A stretch of 17,428 nucleotides of DNA, taken from positions 1 to 17,428 of IMG/VR virus record IMGVR_UViG_2657244986_000007; one strand, given 5' to 3'. The translations under genes were made by a program, and so were the position numbers. Position 1 is the first letter of the stretch, and every line of letters starts with the position of its first letter. This DNA is from a virus. Lineage: Duplodnaviria > Heunggongvirae > Uroviricota > Caudoviricetes. The notes beneath the pieces are model-generated. The model saw only the letters and a list, made by a program, of their open reading frames with translations, was not told the DNA's origin and ran no database searches. Positions 1,168-17,170 of this stretch are shown piece after piece.

Positions 1168-1201
1168 AAAACGCAAAAAGCCCCGAGCTATTAACTCAGG
1201 G
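1168..1201 (-). terminator. tR'-like intrinsic terminator
   Basis: Minus strand: GCCCTGAG-TTAATAG-CTCGGGGC (8-bp stem with one G.U) followed by TTTTTGCGTTTT, about 60 nt downstream of the predicted pR' start. Confidence 0.7.
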
Positions 1202-1232
1202 CTTTATTTAACGAGTGCATTTATCCATCGTT
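1172..1232 (-). ncRNA. Short pR' leader transcript (6S-RNA analogue, about 60 nt)
   Basis: Inferred from promoter and terminator positions; transcript ends were not measured. Confidence 0.4.
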
Positions 1233-1270
1233 GAGTCAAATTTACCCAACTTTATTCAAAAAGTCAATAT
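1232..1270 (-). promoter_or_regulatory. Late promoter pR' with Q-utilisation (qut) region
   Basis: Minus strand has TTGACT (plus 1262-1267), a 17-bp spacer and TAAATT (plus 1239-1244), directly downstream of the Q stop, as in lambda. Confidence 0.7.
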
Positions 1271-1309
1271 TATGCCGTTAATATGTTGCCATCCGTGGCA
1301 ATCATGCTG

Positions 1310-1933
1310 CTAACGTGTGACCGCATTCAAAATGTTGTCTGCGATTGACTCTTCTTTGTGGCATTGCACCACCAGAGCGTCATACAGCGGCTTAACAGTG
1401 CGTGACCAGGTGGGTTGGGTAAGATTTGGGATTAGCATCGTCACAGCGCGATATGCGGCGCTTGCTGGCATCCTTGAATAGCCGACACCTTTGCATCTTC
1501 CGCATTCTTTCTCAACAACTCTCCCCCACTGCTCTGTTTTTGCTATATCAACCGCACGGCCTGTACCGTGGCAATCTCTGCATCTTGCGCCCGGCGTCGC
1601 GGCACTACGGCAATAATCCGCATAAGCGAATGTTGCGAGCACTTGCAGTACCTTTGCCTTAGTATTTCCTTCAAGCTTTGCCACACCACGGTATTTCCCC
1701 GATACCTTGTGTGCAAATTGCATCAGATAGTTGATAGCCTTTTGTTTGTCGTTCTGGCTGAGTTCGTGCTTACCACAGAATGCAGCCATGCCGAATCCGG
1801 CTTGTGATTGCGCCATCCCCATAGCAGCCATCACATCAGTACCGGAAAGAGAGTCAGAAGCCGTGGCCCGTGGTGAGTCACTCATCATCGGGCTTTTTGG
1901 CGAATGAAATTTAGCTACGCTTTCGAGTCTCAT
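1310..1933 (-). CDS. Q: Late-gene antiterminator Q, 207 aa
   Basis: Protein [44 protein letters not shown]... is recognised as lambda Q, with its Cys-rich zinc-binding region. The start overlaps the upstream gene's stop (ATGA). Confidence 0.95.
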
Positions 1934-2595
1934 GCGCCTTCTCCCTGTACCTGAATCAATGTGAGGTTTCCGCAGAACACTGCGCCGGTATCGATATACA
2001 TCTGGTTGGCAAACTTGAGTGGTTTCACTGCTGGCGTATGACCAAAGATGAACGTGTCCGCGCCTTTGATTTCTTTCACGATCCCGTCTTGTGAGTTGCT
2101 GATTCGTTCGCGGTTCCAGATTACCTGCTGATGATCAACTGGCTTTCCAAACTCGTATTCGTCACAAGGATAATCGGCGTGGCAGATGACGTATTTTTTA
2201 CCTTTGCTCACCAGTTCGATGATTAACGGAAGTTCATCTGCTTTATGGGCAAGAGCTTTAGCCAGAATTTCTTTGTCGTAATCGAGATTAAAGAGCCAGC
2301 CACCGCCATTAAACAGCCAGTGATTGACGTTTCCACGCTCTGATAAGCCATCAATCATCATTTGCTCATGGTTTCCACGTACAGCTCTGAACCAGGTGAA
2401 TGTGATTAATTCCAGGCATTCAACGTTCTCTGTACCGCGATCGACCAAATCGCCAACAGAGATAAGCAGGTCTTTTTTGGTGTCGAATCCTATCGTCTCC
2501 AGTTTTTCCATCAGGTTCGTGTAGCATCCGTGCAGATCGCCAACTACCCAAATATTTCGGTATTTGCTGCCATCAATTCTTTCGTAATAGCGCAT
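1930..2595 (-). CDS. Ser/Thr protein phosphatase (lambda PPase / ORF221-like), 221 aa
   Basis: From [25 protein letters not shown]...GNHE: the GDLHG, GDLVDRG and GNHE metallophosphatase motifs are present. Start chosen at the internal ATG (2595) with a GGAG Shine-Dalgarno; the track's 2670 start is probably an upstream extension. Confidence 0.9.
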
Positions 2596-2779
2596 CTCTT
2601 TCACTCCATCCGCGATGAACCATAAGAACGTCGTTGACGATGGCGTGCATTTTCCCGTCTTTATCATCAACGTATTTTCTGACCGTACCGCGACTACATT
2701 TCAGTCTGCGTGCTACTTCTGTCTGGTTTCCGTATGCTTCAACGAGCATGTCTGGAATGGTTTTTACTGAGAACGTCAT
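2573..2779 (-). CDS. ninH: NinH, 68 aa
   Basis: Protein [37 protein letters not shown]... is recognised as lambda NinH (HTH-like). Sits between ninG and the phosphatase. Confidence 0.9.
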
Positions 2780-3387: not shown

Positions 3388-3556
3388 CGTCTTCTTCCTC
3401 GTACATTGAGCTATTCGGATCGCTCATCAGTTCTGCACAGCAGTGCTCACACACGTGAACTTCCAGCACATGCAGCTTCTGACCGCAGTTAGCGCACGTT
3501 AAAGCCCGCTCGACGCTTTCTTTCTGGTATTGAAGGGATTGGGATGGACTAAGCAT
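3380..3556 (-). CDS. ninF: NinF, 58 aa (absent from the ORF track because under 60 aa)
   Basis: Hand translation of the minus strand gives [58 protein letters not shown]. The stop overlaps the ninG ATG. Confidence 0.85.
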
Positions 3557-3896
3557 TATTGGCGTCCTGCATCATGAGAAATACAATCATGGCGGCGCGG
3601 AGTGGGTTGTTGTCTATGGTAATAAATTCACAAAATCTATCCGCCTCCCACCAATATTCATTCTTCATTCCAGGATTATTTCTTTCGTATGCACATATGC
3701 TGATCTGATGTTTTGCAATTACAGGCCATGCATCTGCTGGGTTATTGCAGTAGTCGTACCATCGATAATTACCATTTACTTCATTGCCAACAGACCGTCC
3801 ATCTGCGTTGTGCGGATAACCTAATGGTTTTGCCCCAACTATCGCTTTAAATACTCGCTTGTTAATTTCAAAATCACTTAACTGTGAATAATCCAT
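3549..3896 (-). CDS. Hypothetical nin-region protein (NinX / DUF2591-like), about 115 aa
   Basis: ORF MDYSQLSDFEINKRVFKAIVGAKPLGYPHNADG.... Start placed at the ATG at 3896 (AGGA Shine-Dalgarno 7 nt upstream); an ATG at 3902 coupled to the ninE stop is the alternative. The track's 3938 start is a GTG extension. Confidence 0.65.
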   Translation of the reverse strand: MDYSQLSDFEINKRVFKAIVGAKPLGYPHNADGRSVGNEVNGNYRWYDYCNNPADAWPVIAKHQISICAYERNNPGMKNEYWWEADRFCEFITIDNNPLRAAMIVFLMMQDANNA

Positions 3897-3898
3897 TG

Positions 3899-4075
3899 TC
3901 ATTTCCTCGCACGATGTCTTAGCCACCGGATATCCCACAGGTGAGCCGTGTAGTTGAAGGTTTTTACGTCAGATTCTTTTGGGATTGGCTTGCGTTTATT
4001 TCTGGAGCGTTTCGTTGGAAGGTATTTGCAGTTTTCGCAGATTATGTCGGTGATACTTCGTCGCTGTCTCGCCAC
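3899..4075 (-). CDS. ninE: NinE, 58 aa, GTG start (absent from the ORF track)
   Basis: Hand translation: (M)[57 protein letters not shown], recognised as lambda NinE. AAGGAGG lies 4 nt upstream of the GTG. Confidence 0.75.
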
Positions 4076-4215
4076 ACGTCCTCCTTTTCCTGCGGTAGTG
4101 GTAACACCCCTGTTGGTGTTCTTTCACATCGGAGACACCATCGATTCCAGTAAGGTTGCCCGGGTCGAAAGCGATCGTCTTCCTTTCGCTCTCCACATCG
4201 ATAACAGTGCTTCAT
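4042..4215 (-). CDS. ninD: Small Cys-rich protein, probable NinD (57 aa)
   Basis: [34 protein letters not shown].... The ATG overlaps the methyltransferase stop (ATGA). Size and position match lambda ninD; the sequence was not verified from memory. Confidence 0.55.
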
Positions 4216-4802
4216 GCGATCACCATTTTGCATGGTTTAATCGCCATGCCGGTAGCCAGTTCAAAATCGGAGTCGCACTGATTGCCCCACATATCCCACC
4301 CGGTCACTTTGTCGCGGCTAAATAACTCACAGCGCGGCACGTCGCCAAGCAACTTAGCTAACATGTCTCTTACGATCGGTGGTTTTGCACTGTGCTCCAT
4401 TCTCGGTGCGGTAAAGTGCTGGCATATTGAAGCGTCCATTCTCTCAGGTAACCGCCCTCGAACGGCAAACAAGCAATCCTCGCTATTTGCCCGGGTCATA
4501 TGCCCCATTCCGATCGCACTGTTGCCTTTGTGCTTATTGGTTTTGTGCCAAGTAAAGCCTTTCATAGTCATCAACCTGAATCCCCACGCCTCAATTACCT
4601 TTAGCGCTTCGGCTGGCTGTGTCGGCACCCACCACATCGCTAACAAGCAAGATTCTGGATCCGCTAAATCCCATACTGGCAGTCGGCAAATGTCCTGAAC
4701 ATTCATAACATCGTATTTATGTCCAGCACCGCGATTGCCATCGTTGGCTTTGTCGCGATATTGCCAAGGCGGATCTGCGTAAATAAGTCGGTATTTGTTC
4801 AT
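4212..4802 (-). CDS. DNA N6-adenine methyltransferase, MT-A70 family, 196 aa
   Basis: N-terminal motif YADPPW (DPPW catalytic motif) and overall MT-A70-like layout. Occupies the position of lambda ninC, coupled to the ninB stop. Confidence 0.8.
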
Positions 4803-5239
4803 TCAGTTTTATCTCCCCATCTCGCTTTCCACTCCAGAGCCAGTCGCGCTTCGTCTGACCATTTAACGCCACGTTCTGTACCGAATGCCTGTATAAGCTC
4901 TAATAGCTCCGCAAATTCGCCTACACGCATCCTGCTGGTTGACTGGCCTATTACCACAAAGCCATTCCCGGCAAGGTTAGGAACAACGTCCTGCTGCTTT
5001 AATGCTGCGGTAAACACACACTTCCAGCTTTCTGCATCCAGCCAGCGACCATGCCATTCAACCTGACGAGAGACGTCACCAAGGCAAGCCCAAAGCTTTC
5101 GGTTTTGGTCTAAGCTGCGGTTGCGTTCCTGAATGGTTACTACGATTGGTTTGGTTGGGTCTGGAAGGATTTGCTGGATAGCTTGAATGGCGTTCTGCTG
5201 ATGGATGGGGCTTCTTAGTTCAAACGTTAGTTTCCTCAT
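4799..5239 (-). CDS. ninB: NinB recombination protein, 146 aa
   Basis: Protein MRKLTFELRSPIHQQNAIQAIQQILPDPTKPIVVTIQERNRSLDQNRKLWACLGDV... is recognised as lambda NinB. Confidence 0.9.
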   Translation of the reverse strand: MRKLTFELRSPIHQQNAIQAIQQILPDPTKPIVVTIQERNRSLDQNRKLWACLGDVSRQVEWHGRWLDAESWKCVFTAALKQQDVVPNLAGNGFVVIGQSTSRMRVGEFAELLELIQAFGTERGVKWSDEARLALEWKARWGDKTE

Positions 5240-5474
5240 TGCTCACCTTCTGCACGCATGGATTAATTAACGCCAAAATAGCTTCTGGTTTCTCAATAAC
5301 ATCGAACCGCTCACCACTTGCCATTCTTACAATCGTAATCCCGGCCTCAAATAGGGTTTCGATGTTGTCAGAGTTAACGTACAAGGGCTCATATGCACTT
5401 CTGGTGCTTTCTATCACGCCTGTGCTTGGTGGCTGATAGATGCTGCATTGCATGGTTAATTTTATAAATGGCAT
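5220..5474 (-). CDS. Hypothetical protein, 84 aa
   Basis: ORF with a strong Shine-Dalgarno (GGAG 7 nt before the ATG), in the ren-equivalent position between the helicase and ninB. Confidence 0.6.
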   Translation of the reverse strand: MPFIKLTMQCSIYQPPSTGVIESTRSAYEPLYVNSDNIETLFEAGITIVRMASGERFDVIEKPEAILALINPCVQKVSNEETNV

Positions 5475-5478
5475 ATAC

Positions 5479-5742
5479 TCACTCCTTCACTTTGATTCCA
5501 GCGGCGCGGATAGCCTCTACATCGCTTTCGTATTGCGATTCTGCACCTGAGTCATAGCCAATGTGATAATCACCGGGAAGTGGGCCTTTCTTTGGCTTTT
5601 GCAGCTCAATCTCGATAGCTGCTCGCGATGCCTGCCACGCTTGCCAATACATCTCAACTATATTGGCGTATATTTTATTTTTAGGATCACATCCGGTGTA
5701 ATTTTCAAACCATTCTTCAAACTGCTTTCTTGATTCGTCCAT
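5479..5742 (-). CDS. Hypothetical protein, 87 aa
   Basis: ORF MDESRKQFEEWFENYTGCDPKNKIY... with a GAGGG Shine-Dalgarno upstream. Confidence 0.6.
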   Translation of the reverse strand: MDESRKQFEEWFENYTGCDPKNKIYANIVEMYWQAWQASRAAIEIELQKPKKGPLPGDYHIGYDSGAESQYESDVEAIRAAGIKVKE

Positions 5743-5759
5743 CGATACTTACCCTCAGT

Positions 5760-5966
5760 TCAACTCACAAAACGCCACGCCATTTTTGCTACAGCGACAG
5801 GCATAACACCGATAATCACCCACAGGAAAATGCTACCGAAAAGCACACCCACCAGGTCTTTACCTTCGCCTACCAACCGGACAAAACTGCTGGCAACAAC
5901 AATGAACGTCGCCACCATCCACATAGCACCGAGAATCCTCAATGCAGAGAAAATTAACTCAGCCAC
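5760..5966 (-). CDS. Small hydrophobic protein with two predicted transmembrane segments, 68 aa, GTG start
   Basis: (M)AELIFSALRILGAMWMVATFIVVASSFVRLVGEGKDLVGVLFGSIFLWVIIGVMPVAVAKMAWRFVS. GGAGG lies 7-8 nt upstream of the GTG. Confidence 0.5.
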   Translation of the reverse strand: MAELIFSALRILGAMWMVATFIVVASSFVRLVGEGKDLVGVLFGSIFLWVIIGVMPVAVAKMAWRFVS

Positions 5967-5981
5967 GATTCACCCTCCCCC

Positions 5982-6013
5982 AAATAAAAAGGCCTGCGAT
6001 TACCAGCAGGCCT
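5982..6013 (-). terminator. tR2-like intrinsic terminator between the replication and nin modules
   Basis: Perfect inverted repeat AGGCCTGC-N8-GCAGGCCT (5990-6013) followed on the minus strand by TTTTTATTT. Confidence 0.7.
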
Positions 6014-10359: not shown

Positions 10360-10470
10360 CAGCATTCAAAGCAGAAAGCTTTGAGTAGCGCGAAATGCAG
10401 CTGCAAGGCAGCAACCGTGGAGATAAGCATCACGGCGCGTTACTCAAAGCTAACTGACAGGAGAATCCAG

Positions 10471-11368
<898 letters not shown>

Positions 11369-11532: not shown

Positions 11533-11781
11533 ATGATAAAAACTGATTACCCTGCAGAGCTTAAACAAAAAGTAATAACAGCAATTAAATGCTCTTTTAT
11601 CTCATGTCGTACAGATGAAGAACGATATGTCGTTGAGTGTGCAATTGTCGAGTTTCTCACAGCGATGGAATTTACCGCTGCAGAATCAATAGATGTATTA
11701 AAGCAATCAGACGGAAATGATATTGAAACGGATGATGTTATTGACCGACTAATAAAATCATTCGAAGAAGAAATAGAGTAG
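11533..11781 (+). CDS. Small acidic protein, 82 aa, unknown function
   Basis: MIKTDYPAELKQKVITAIKCSFISCRTDEERYVVECAIVEF...DGNDIETDDVIDRLIKSFEEEIE, with an acidic C-terminus. GGAG Shine-Dalgarno upstream. Confidence 0.65.
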   Translation: MIKTDYPAELKQKVITAIKCSFISCRTDEERYVVECAIVEFLTAMEFTAAESIDVLKQSDGNDIETDDVIDRLIKSFEEEIE

Positions 11782-13581: not shown

Positions 13582-14061
13582 ATGAAAGTCTGCTCAAGAT
13601 GCCATCAACAGAAGGAAGAAAGGGACTTTCAAATCAGAAGAGCATCCAGAGATGGATTAACTGCCGCTTGCCGGGCTTGCCTGGCTGAATACGACAAAGA
13701 ACGCGCTGGATTGCCACATCGAGTATCAGCAAGGAGAGAATATCAATCATCGGAACGCGGAAGAGAACGGTGTAACGCAGCCAAAAAGCGGTTCATTCAG
13801 AGCAACCCATGGAAAAGAAAAGCCCACATCATTGTGGGTAATTTTTTGCGCGACGGTAAGCTAATCCGACCACCACAATGTGAGTGCTGCGGATCAGAAT
13901 GTAAACCACAGGCGCACCACTGCGACTACAGCAAACCAACCGATGTGATGTGGCTCTGCAAGTCATGTCATGTCGAGTGGCACAAACATAACAAACCTAT
14001 CTACCCAGACGAGGAACCAGTAACTCTCCCCTTCCCTCGTCACGCTATTCACGCAATTTAA
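13582..14061 (+). CDS. HNH-family endonuclease, 159 aa
   Basis: Cys pairs CSRCH, CRAC and CECCG, plus ...QAHHCDYSKPTDVMWLCKSCHVEWH, consistent with an HNH/zinc-binding nuclease motif. Confidence 0.7.
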   Translation: MKVCSRCHQQKEERDFQIRRASRDGLTAACRACLAEYDKERAGLPHRVSARREYQSSERGRERCNAAKKRFIQSNPWKRKAHIIVGNFLRDGKLIRPPQCECCGSECKPQAHHCDYSKPTDVMWLCKSCHVEWHKHNKPIYPDEEPVTLPFPRHAIHAI

Positions 14062-14069
14062 GGACTTAC

Positions 14070-14618
14070 ATGAATCACTTGATGGTTGACCTTGAAACAA
14101 TGGGCAACGGGCCATACGCGCCAGTTATTTCTATTGGGGCGGTATTCTTTGACCCGAATACCGGAGAAACAGGAGAAGAGTTCTCGGTAAATATCTCGCT
14201 TGAATCATCAATGCGATATCGAGCGCGTCCTGACGCTTCAACGATTTTATGGTGGCTGGAACAGAGTGAAGAAGCCAGAAAATCGCTAACCAGCAACACT
14301 CAGGAGCTTTCAACGGCTCTTTCATGGTTATCTGAATTCATCATAAAGAACGCTAACCACAAATTCGTTCAGGTTTGGGGGAATGGAGCATCATTTGACT
14401 GCGTTATTCTCCGAAACAGTTATTCGCTGACAGGGCAGCCAGTTCCGTGGCAGTGGTGGAATGACCGCGACGTAAGAACAATCGTCGAACTTGGGAAGGT
14501 AATAGGATTCGACCCTAAGCGAGATATGCCATTCAAAGGAACTCGCCACAACGCGCTTGATGATGCCATTCACCAAGCCAAATACGTTTCAGCGATCTGG
14601 AAAAAGTTAGCTAAATAA
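14070..14618 (+). CDS. 3'-5' exonuclease, DEDD (DnaQ-like) family, 182 aa
   Basis: Exo I motif MVDLETMG and Exo III motif H-NALDDA; size and layout fit DEDDh exonucleases. Confidence 0.8.
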   Translation: MNHLMVDLETMGNGPYAPVISIGAVFFDPNTGETGEEFSVNISLESSMRYRARPDASTILWWLEQSEEARKSLTSNTQELSTALSWLSEFIIKNANHKFVQVWGNGASFDCVILRNSYSLTGQPVPWQWWNDRDVRTIVELGKVIGFDPKRDMPFKGTRHNALDDAIHQAKYVSAIWKKLAK

Positions 14619-14634
14619 TCAACAGGAGAAAACC

Positions 14635-14931
14635 ATGCCAGCGCCTCTGTATGGTGCGGATGACGCGCGCCGCTGTTCCGGCAATTCCGTATCGGAGGTG
14701 CTGGATAAATTCAGAAAAAACTACGATCGGATAATGTCGCTACCGCAGGAAACGAAAGAGGAAAAGGAATTTCGCCATTGTATATGGCTTGCAGAGAAAG
14801 AAGAACGAGAGCGAATTTACCAGACATCAATCCGACCATTCCGCAAAGCCACATATACCCAATTCCCTGAATATATCGACCCGCGCCTGCGTAATTACCG
14901 CTCACGCTATGGCGCTATCAGTAATGACTGA
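14635..14931 (+). CDS. Hypothetical protein, 98 aa
   Basis: ORF with AGGAGA Shine-Dalgarno upstream; no recognisable motif. Confidence 0.55.
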
Positions 14932-16144: not shown

Positions 16145-16945
16145 ATGACCATCCACTTTCACGGCAGCCCAATATGGGGGGATGAGCATGCCCCTACAGA
16201 TATGCTGATTAAAGCCCTTTACCGTGATGGTGGGGCTTTTGTTTCATTTGCCAGACCAGAGCAGATGAAAAAGATTGCCATGTTCCCTTGTGATATACGC
16301 CTTGATAACGGCGCTTTTAGCGACTGGATGAAAGCATTAAAGAAAGGCACTCCGGTAGACTGGAGTAAGAGGCGAGCAAAATTCTACGACTTTGTTGGGA
16401 AGTGGTTCAGCAGAATTGAATGGTTTCTTATACCTGACGTTATCGAAGGGACAGAGGCAGAAAACGACGAGCAGATTGAGTTGGTTCCTGATTGGCTAAA
16501 ATCAAAAGCGGTTCCGGTCTGGCATACCGACGAATCAATTGAACGTCTTTTACGCCTTTCTGGCAAATTTGAATGGGTGGCGATTGGATGCTGCGGCCCA
16601 CACAGGCACATACGCTCTAAATGGTGGGAACAGAGAATGGATGAAGTTTTCACTGAGCTTTATATCAATCGTAATTTGAAAGTGAAAATTCATGGTCTTC
16701 GAATGCTCGACGTGAGAGTTCTTGGTATGTATCCGTTCGCCAGTGCGGATTCTACTAATGTTGCTGTTAACGTACCGAAGACAGAGAAGCGATTTCCTGA
16801 GATTACTGACAAACTGGCACGTACAGCTGTACTTCGCGCTGCTATTGAAAAGGTGCACCCGCCATCGATATCAGCATGGGTAGACAGAAAGATGAGAGAG
16901 CCGGCGCAAGCCGGTTTTTTATTTGAATTCACCGACGCCGCTTAA
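16145..16945 (+). CDS. Protein of unknown function, 266 aa
   Basis: Long ORF preceded by GGGGA. No motif I can assign with confidence (no P-loop, no PP-loop, no HTH recognised). Confidence 0.75.
   Translation: MTIHFHGSPIWGDEHAPTDMLIKALYRDGGAFVSFARPEQMKKIAMFPCDIRLDNGAFSDWMKALKKGTPVDWSKRRAKFYDFVGKWFSRIEWFLIPDVIEGTEAENDEQIELVPDWLKSKAVPVWHTDESIERLLRLSGKFEWVAIGCCGPHRHIRSKWWEQRMDEVFTELYINRNLKVKIHGLRMLDVRVLGMYPFASADSTNVAVNVPKTEKRFPEITDKLARTAVLRAAIEKVHPPSISAWVDRKMREPAQAGFLFEFTDAA
16899..16924 (+). terminator. Intrinsic-terminator-like hairpin with a GCAA tetraloop inside the last 15 codons of the 16145 gene
   Basis: CCGGC-GCAA-GCCGG followed by TTTTTTATTT. Confidence 0.55.
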
Positions 16946-17002: not shown

Positions 17003-17170
17003 ATGCACTTCCGAGTAACAGGTGAATGGAATGGAGAACCATTCAACAGAGTTATCGAAGCAGAGAACATCAACGACTGCTATGACCACTGGATGCTGTG
17101 GGCGCAGATGGCACATGCAGACGTAACCAATATTCGAATTGAAGAACTGAAAGAACACCAAGCCGCCTGA
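17003..17170 (+). CDS. Small hypothetical protein, about 55 aa
   Basis: MHFRVTGEWNGEPFNRVIEAENINDCYDHWMLWAQMAHADVTNIRIEELKEH.... GGAGA Shine-Dalgarno upstream. The 3' end is uncertain by a few nt: my hand reading and the ORF track disagree on the stop position. Confidence 0.4.
   Translation: MHFRVTGEWNGEPFNRVIEAENINDCYDHWMLWAQMAHADVTNIRIEELKEHQAA

Follow-up and report, generated by a model that had tools for sequence, protein, structure and literature searches.

The stretch of DNA analysed here, 17,428 nucleotides in full and called the window below, carries a gene for a putative adenine methyltransferase at the place where phage lambda carries ninC. This raises the question of which nucleic acid and which sequence the enzyme would methylate, when in the phage life cycle it would act and what the phage would gain from it. 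The protein is an already annotated, uncharacterised member of a known and widespread family of Dam-like MT-A70 enzymes of temperate phages. We read it, with a probability of roughly 0.6, as a solitary SAM-dependent DNA N6-adenine methyltransferase of the "beta2" MT-A70 type, with GATC as its likeliest target and with expression confined to lytic growth.

A methyltransferase cassette in the ninC slot

The window matches the E. coli ST12468 chromosome at 100% identity throughout its 17,428 bases and spans a P22-like lambdoid prophage from the lysis genes to torI, adjoining dsdC. The genes of its nin region, assigned throughout by strong Pfam or PHROG matches, follow each other on the same strand in the order NinB, methyltransferase, NinD, NinE, NinX, NinF, NinG, NinH, NinI-type phosphatase and Q-type antiterminator. 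The coordinates of the principal features are given in Table 1.

Table 1 Principal features of the window, with strand and source of the assignment.
Feature	Position	Strand	Basis
MT-A70 family (beta-class) N6-adenine methyltransferase ORF, 196 aa	4212..4802	-	ORF list, Pfam, PHROG, RefSeq
Catalytic motif IV, DPPW codons (residues 10-13)	4764..4775	-	sequence read; invariant in 10-homologue alignment
Variable-loop codons (residues 93-108), candidate target-recognition element	4479..4526	-	AF2 pLDDT and alignment
Mosaic cassette, no homology to NinC-carrying sister prophage (AST215)	4218..4798	.	blastn
ninB (Orf-family recombination mediator), upstream neighbour	4799..5239	-	PF05772, E 4.2e-54
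ninD, 57 aa, downstream neighbour	4042..4215	-	PF17466, E 9.7e-40
ATGA overlap, ninB stop and methyltransferase start	4799..4802	-	sequence read
ATGA overlap, methyltransferase stop and ninD start	4212..4215	-	sequence read; RefSeq NinD start agrees
GGGGAG, Shine-Dalgarno-like element 10 nt 5' of the methyltransferase ATG, within the ninB 3' end	4813..4818	-	
Intrinsic terminator resembling tR2, after the replicative helicase gene and ahead of the nin genes	5990..6013	-	terminator scan
Accessory ORFs of the leftward early operon	11533..11781, 13582..14061, 14070..14618, 14635..14931	+	

An earlier sequence-only reading had reported a DPPW-motif MT-A70 methyltransferase in place of ninC, coupled between ninB and ninD. 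The coordinates it gave, without a strand, are exactly those of an ORF on the minus strand, and both the family and the position hold. In the lambda reference (NC_001416) the order is NinB-NinC-NinD-NinE, NinC being a PAPS-reductase-like protein of 290 aa, and in the sister prophage of E. coli AST215 a PAPS-reductase-like NinC lies between the equivalent NinB and NinD. When the window was compared with AST215 by blastn, the homology on the side of ninB (93.4%) ended at 4799, and on the side of ninD (93.0%) it resumed at 4217. As these breaks coincide with the ORF boundaries, "in place of ninC" applies literally: one cassette has been swapped for another exactly at the gene boundaries, a clean example in the ninC slot of classic lambdoid mosaicism. 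Lambda NinC (ORF-290) occupies the equivalent slot with the same overlapping junctions, but it belongs to an unrelated family and is a positional alternative to the methyltransferase, not a homologue. The methyltransferase gene would then be one of several interchangeable cassettes in the post-ninB slot of lambdoid phages.

Among 5426 complete E. coli genomes, the methyltransferase allele was found in 39, always between NinB and NinD, in isolates from several countries and hosts, and the copies are 95-100% identical. The NinC allele was present in 247 of these genomes. At least 867 contain an MT-A70 relative detectable by blastn, mostly adjoining a PerC-like gene near the integrase.

The methyltransferase overlaps both neighbours by ATGA. 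Since such tight packing is generic in nin regions (PMC8022706), the translational coupling proposed in the earlier reading is reasonable but unremarkable. The downstream 63-aa ORF matches PF17466 from residue 7 onwards, which places the true NinD start at the ATG at 4215 and not at that at 4233. We found no restriction endonuclease gene in the window, nor in the RefSeq annotation of the 23-kb region, which makes the methyltransferase an orphan (solitary) enzyme, as had also been proposed. The genes near it are exclusively nin, replication, recombination and lysis genes.

NinX (P22-type; 3549..3938, minus strand), between NinE and NinF, has a G+C content of 0.42 compared with about 0.50 in its neighbours. 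With this low G+C and its absence from the sister prophage it represents a further cassette difference; its start lies at 3896 in RefSeq, as opposed to the GTG at 3938. The ORF of the NinI-type Ser/Thr phosphatase (1930..2670, minus strand) has a TTG start and 246 aa as mechanically called, but the start used in RefSeq and in lambda lies downstream, giving 221 aa (1930..2595) and an overlap with ninH. Between the helicase gene with its terminator and ninB, three small ORFs (5220..5966, minus strand) are absent from the NinC-carrying sister prophage. One of them encodes an FlbD-like protein of 84 aa (PF06289, E 1e-5; PHROG 8458, "flagellar protein"), which is odd in a nin region, and the others encode 87 aa (phiTE_015 family in RefSeq) and 68 aa (PHROG 1165). 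In the AST215 sister prophage, a tRNA-Asn gene lies between Q and the holin gene, at 1200..1274 of the compared region.

An intact MT-A70 protein with a divergent loop

The methyltransferase matches Pfam MT-A70 (PF05063) over the full domain, residues 4-175 aligning with positions 1-172 of the 172-position profile (E 4.7e-25; 88.9 bits against a cut-off of 23.9), and PF05063 is the sole Pfam family matched. It further matches PHROG 359 "DNA methyltransferase" (E 3e-106) and the PADLOC MTase_II model (E 4e-70), and nothing in NCBIfam. Its RefSeq entry, WP_021560253.1, is named "MT-A70 family methyltransferase", and a large protein database contains 1078 relatives at E<=1e-10. The position of DPPW near the N-terminus corresponds to the circularly permuted, beta-class motif order. 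Together with HSxKP, ELFxR and WGN, all present in the window protein, this motif is unchanged in all of 10 homologues, whose identities go down to 42%. Antisense ORFs over the gene, such as 4282..4698 (plus strand, 138 aa), were taken as by-products of the coding strand.

The AF2 model of the protein is of moderate confidence (pLDDT 74, pTM 0.75). The best Foldseek matches of this model, at E of about 1e-11, were METTL3 (5il1_A, E 4.5e-12, TM 0.66) and MTA1 (7yi8_B), the same two proteins that were matched by sequence in the PDB; no solved structure was found for any MT-A70 member from bacteria or phages. The METTL3-METTL14 and ciliate MTA1 complexes thus share the catalytic fold and DPPW with the window protein, but the identity is only about 22-26%, and the eukaryotic enzymes, which have additional domains, are obligate heteromers.

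Residues 93-108 are the only segment of the model with a pLDDT below 50. The same residues form the most variable region of the alignment, where the enzyme type of phage HK639 has an insertion of 23 aa, and we regard this loop as a candidate specificity element. Its sequence in the clade of the window protein is unlike that in the clade of the Stx-phage enzyme M.EcoGV (NKCGKRQTDKLVMGMGS), so that the specificity could differ between the two clades.

With intact motifs and a conserved allele, the enzyme is likely active. That it might instead be an inactive or decaying prophage passenger without function appears hardly credible. The gene is an accessory one in a non-essential prophage region and its allele is limited to the 39 genomes mentioned above, but nothing specific points to decay. 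The frame is intact and full-length and keeps all residues that are invariant in the family, the 39 copies are near-identical, and intact homologues at 78-92% identity occur in four other genera (Cronobacter, Pantoea, Erwinia and Rahnella).

Relatives and their gene neighbourhoods

A tblastn search yielded 517 phage records and 176 plasmid records with a relative of the methyltransferase. The homologues most similar to the window protein, at 73-92% identity, come from Cronobacter, Pantoea, Rahnella, Erwinia phage 59 and Pectobacterium; their genes directly follow NinB or its analogue DUF1367, with a different downstream gene each time. NinB and the methyltransferase overlap by 4 bp in E. coli, Cronobacter, Pantoea and Rahnella; in Erwinia phage 59 there is a short gap and in Pectobacterium a gap of 300 nt. 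Other relatives follow a small ORF near the integrase, as in Stx2a phages, Klebsiella, Hafnia, Salmonella, HK639, Pantoea stewartii and Yersinia, and still others lie after PerC, after NinG, on phage-plasmids or in a conjugative module of Enterococcus.

We inspected 14 homologue neighbourhoods. NinB or DUF1367 lies upstream in seven loci, which represent six lineages of the closest clade, and in the remaining ones the upstream gene is PerC, DUF1317, NinG, a gene of unknown function or none. The gene downstream of the close homologues always varies (NinD, NinE, NinH or unknowns). No partner gene is conserved among the 14 neighbourhoods, and an obligate subunit, sought through the conservation of neighbours, was rejected as unsupported. 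In early operons, the methyltransferase gene has the character of a free-standing accessory cassette.

GATC as the likeliest target

The target motif had been called unknown in the earlier reading; the relatives of the protein suggest a default prediction. The nearest experimentally studied relatives of the window protein are of the M.EcoGV/M.EcoPA8orf6770P type; gp5 of Stx2a_F723, compared here for this type, is 64% identical to it over 187 aa. Two papers cite M.EcoGV as a "Dam homologue" whose GATC specificity was established by PacBio sequencing (PMC6602927, PMC10810198). The HK639 enzyme is 45% identical to the window protein and 75% identical to p32 of the Serratia phage BZS1 (PMC7556043). 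DNA modified by BZS1 p32 in a dam- host was resistant to MboI and sensitive to DpnI, and was still cut by HinfI and Hin1II (PMC7556043). The third type is M.EfaBMDam of Tn1549, reported to be GATC-specific (PMC7556043); a Tn1549-type homologue from Enterococcus, about 42% identical to the window protein, served as its stand-in. In a neighbour-joining tree of 10 taxa, built without bootstrap, the clade of the window protein and the M.EcoGV clade are sisters, and the HK639 clade and then the Enterococcus enzyme branch off as successive outgroups. Because three types reported to methylate GATC bracket the window protein in this tree, GATC is by parsimony its most likely target. All bacterial MT-A70-type enzymes with a reported specificity that we found are specific for GATC.

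These relatives differ in size and genomic setting. The Stx2a gp5 type shares with the window protein the MT-A70 subgroup, DPPW, HSxKP, ELFxR and WGN, and is likewise a solitary prophage gene of an early operon. It lies, however, near the integrase and overlaps the preceding gene, PNB-2, by 4 bp, whereas the window gene lies in the nin region after NinB. BZS1 p32 and HK639 gp35 are also small solitary MT-A70 enzymes of temperate phages, but with 219 aa, the 23-aa insertion in the variable loop and a location near the integrase they are unlike the window protein. M.EfaBMDam, the founding "beta2-class" bacterial MT-A70 member, belongs to the same subgroup but is encoded in the transfer module of a conjugative transposon in a Gram-positive host. 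The window enzyme is predicted to act on the same site as the host enzyme Dam and with identical chemistry (G-m6A-TC), yet Dam is an alpha-class enzyme with the reverse motif order and without sequence similarity to the phage enzymes (PMC7556043, PMC7544214). The relation would therefore be one of convergence and not of homology, a phage "Dam-like" enzyme having converged on the host Dam site GATC.

The base composition gave no support for GATC methylation. The window has 29 GATC sites in 17.4 kb where 67.5 are expected from base composition, but the corresponding region of the NinC-carrying sister, with 24 in 17.0 kb, is equally depleted, and we discarded this signature as uninformative. Five GATC sites fall within the 591-bp methyltransferase ORF (4218, 4374, 4512, 4658 and 4772), one of them in the DPPW codons. 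The cassette is thus far less depleted of GATC than its surroundings, which may reflect a different origin or chance.

A DNA adenine methyltransferase of other or relaxed specificity, recognising a short motif or acting nearly free of context, would provide a broad anti-restriction device; we consider this the main alternative, though a rather unlikely one. Non-specific phage adenine methyltransferases are known (M.EcoGII, PhiOS31_p25 and PhiARM81ld_p56) and come from the same part of lambdoid genomes (PMC7556043, PMC5778455). The window protein, with its 196 aa, lacks a separate target-recognition domain, and its sole variable element is the disordered loop that sets it apart from the M.EcoGV clade. 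In addition, the Stx-phage relative on its own used SAM weakly and non-specifically (PMC10810198), and the prophage contains other counter-defence genes, encoding the anti-RecBCD protein Abc2 and an ORF of an "anti-restriction protein" PHROG. Against this, PF05063 is the only family that the window protein matches, and the non-specific enzymes known so far are members of other families. Moreover, the uniform GATC specificity reported for bacterial MT-A70 enzymes extends to BZS1 p32, which left HinfI and Hin1II sites unprotected (PMC7556043). The comparison with M.EcoGII itself illustrates the difference. Like the window enzyme, it is a solitary beta-class adenine methyltransferase of an E. coli prophage, and it is silent in the lysogen (PMC5778455), but it has 349 aa, DPPY, a central recognition region and a C-terminal FxGxG (PMC5778455), in place of 196 aa and DPPW.

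Possible partners and an RNA substrate

The literature on the nearest relatives disagrees, with GATC methylation of DNA on one side and methylation of 16S rRNA with a partner protein on the other. The Stx-phage enzyme alone showed only weak activity on DNA in vitro, even on DNA whose GATC sites were unmethylated, and Gong et al. 2023 attributed the in vivo GATC result for the M.EcoGV type to overproduction (PMC10810198). The enzyme is reported to bind PNB-2, a protein of 67 aa encoded upstream, at a ratio of 1:1, to act preferentially on 16S rRNA and 30S subunits in this complex, and thereby to increase spontaneous induction (PMC10810198). Shorter variants lacking the C-terminal tail occur without PNB-2, and the tail was proposed to be necessary for PNB-2 binding (PMC10810198).

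This raises the alternative that the window protein is mainly an N6-adenosine methyltransferase of RNA, for example of 16S rRNA, which together with a small phage partner tunes translation or induction and does not act on DNA. The closest biochemically studied relative is the one reported to have this activity with PNB-2 (PMC10810198), METTL3, an mRNA methyltransferase, is among the nearest solved relatives of the fold, heteromers are frequent among MT-A70 enzymes (PMC10810198), and the genes that overlap it on either side, for NinB and NinD, encode proteins that are small or bind nucleic acids. We nevertheless regard this alternative as distinctly unlikely. We searched the window by tblastn with the Stx-phage PNB-2, PNB-1 and downstream ORF as queries and detected no PNB-2 homologue in it (best E 1.3), the upstream gene being NinB. 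The window protein has 196 aa compared with 208 aa in the Stx enzyme, the similarity ends near residue 187, the tails are unrelated, and the extension proposed for PNB-2 binding is not present. Both neighbours vary among close homologues, so no partner is conserved. Moreover, the claim of 16S rRNA methylation rests on assays of SAM consumption, with no modified base mapped (PMC10810198). By its length and its lack of PNB-2, the window protein fits the description of the shorter, partner-less variants (PMC10810198), and such a nin-region variant would lend itself to testing the activity of the catalytic subunit alone.

The PNB-1 query matched a 55-aa ORF (17003..17170, plus strand), 89% identical to PNB-1 (gp7) of Stx2a phages and belonging to PHROG 676 of unknown function. 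In Stx2a phages, PNB-1 is encoded two genes upstream of the MT-A70 gene; here the ORF lies just before torI/xis at the prophage end, with neither PNB-2 nor a methyltransferase gene beside it. As a partner it was rejected because of its distance of about 12 kb from the methyltransferase gene and its location in the other early operon.

The targeting subunit of a heteromer could also be a nin protein whose translation is coupled to that of the enzyme, the candidates being the ssDNA-binding recombination mediator NinB and the zinc-ribbon-like NinD. Such a complex would methylate single-stranded DNA intermediates of recombination or replication, or RNA, and so regulate phage development. We hold this to be very unlikely; if it were true, the "ninC slot" would serve nucleic-acid modification in general, in coupling with NinB.

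Predicted expression and benefit

The preferred reading, a solitary GATC-specific DNA methyltransferase, includes a prediction of when the gene is expressed. In a terminator scan, the tR2-like hairpin, which lies where lambda has tR2, was detected as a strong candidate with an 8-bp stem including 6 GC pairs, followed by TTTTATTT. An N homologue is encoded at 10381..10794 (PF11438). By analogy with lambda tR2, the terminator would make expression of the nin genes dependent on N antitermination. A promoter scan yielded no minus-strand promoter-like site between the terminator and the methyltransferase gene, but as its total of 9 sites equals the shuffle expectation (9.1), this absence argues only weakly. 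Located in the delayed-early pR operon behind the tR2-like terminator, the methyltransferase gene is probably delayed-early and silent in the lysogen. Silence in the lysogen was reported for other prophage methyltransferases (PMC5778455). Transcription from pR would reach it, as it would the nin genes, only once N allows read-through of the terminator, and hence during lytic growth or induction.

With respect to the benefit, the earlier reading had suggested protection from host restriction. Since Dam already methylates GATC in E. coli, a narrower benefit is plausible, namely the completion of GATC methylation on phage DNA and protection in hosts that are poor in Dam or possess enzymes of the MboI/DpnII type. 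A phage Dam-like enzyme would correct under-methylation of virion DNA, for which attack by MutH and GATC-cutting restriction enzymes have been proposed as the relevance. For both P22 and lambda, virion DNA under-methylated by Dam has been described (PMC8022706). The window enzyme may thus top up GATC methylation on fast-replicating phage DNA that Dam leaves under-methylated. Fully methylated progeny DNA would resist enzymes of the MboI/DpnII type, which cut unmethylated GATC, and it would not be a target of MutH at unmethylated GATC.

The same considerations bear on how the enzyme can be detected. The absence of a new methylated motif upon expression had been named as a refutation, but this would be misleading in any other than a dam- host, because Dam would mask a GATC mark, and the gene is probably silent in the lysogen in any case. 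Methylome profiling of the lysogen would therefore probably show nothing, and phage Dam-like enzymes are invisible to such profiling in dam+ hosts.

Other accessory genes of the prophage

The accessory ORFs of the leftward early operon listed in Table 1 are, in the order of their coordinates, one in PHROG 14587 "anti-restriction protein", one in an "endonuclease" PHROG with a weaker Lar-like match (PHROG 2340/5558), which is absent from the RefSeq annotation, one for a Rv2179c-like 3'-5' exonuclease and one for the Abc2 anti-RecBCD protein. A Rad52-type recombinase and a phage SSB are encoded beside these genes. Further along, an ORF of 266 aa (16145..16945, plus strand) matches PHROG 887 "queuine tRNA-ribosyltransferase" (E 1.4e-102). 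It has no Pfam match and is a "hypothetical protein" in RefSeq; if it were a DpdA/TGT-like enzyme, the prophage would possess a second base-modification function for DNA or RNA.
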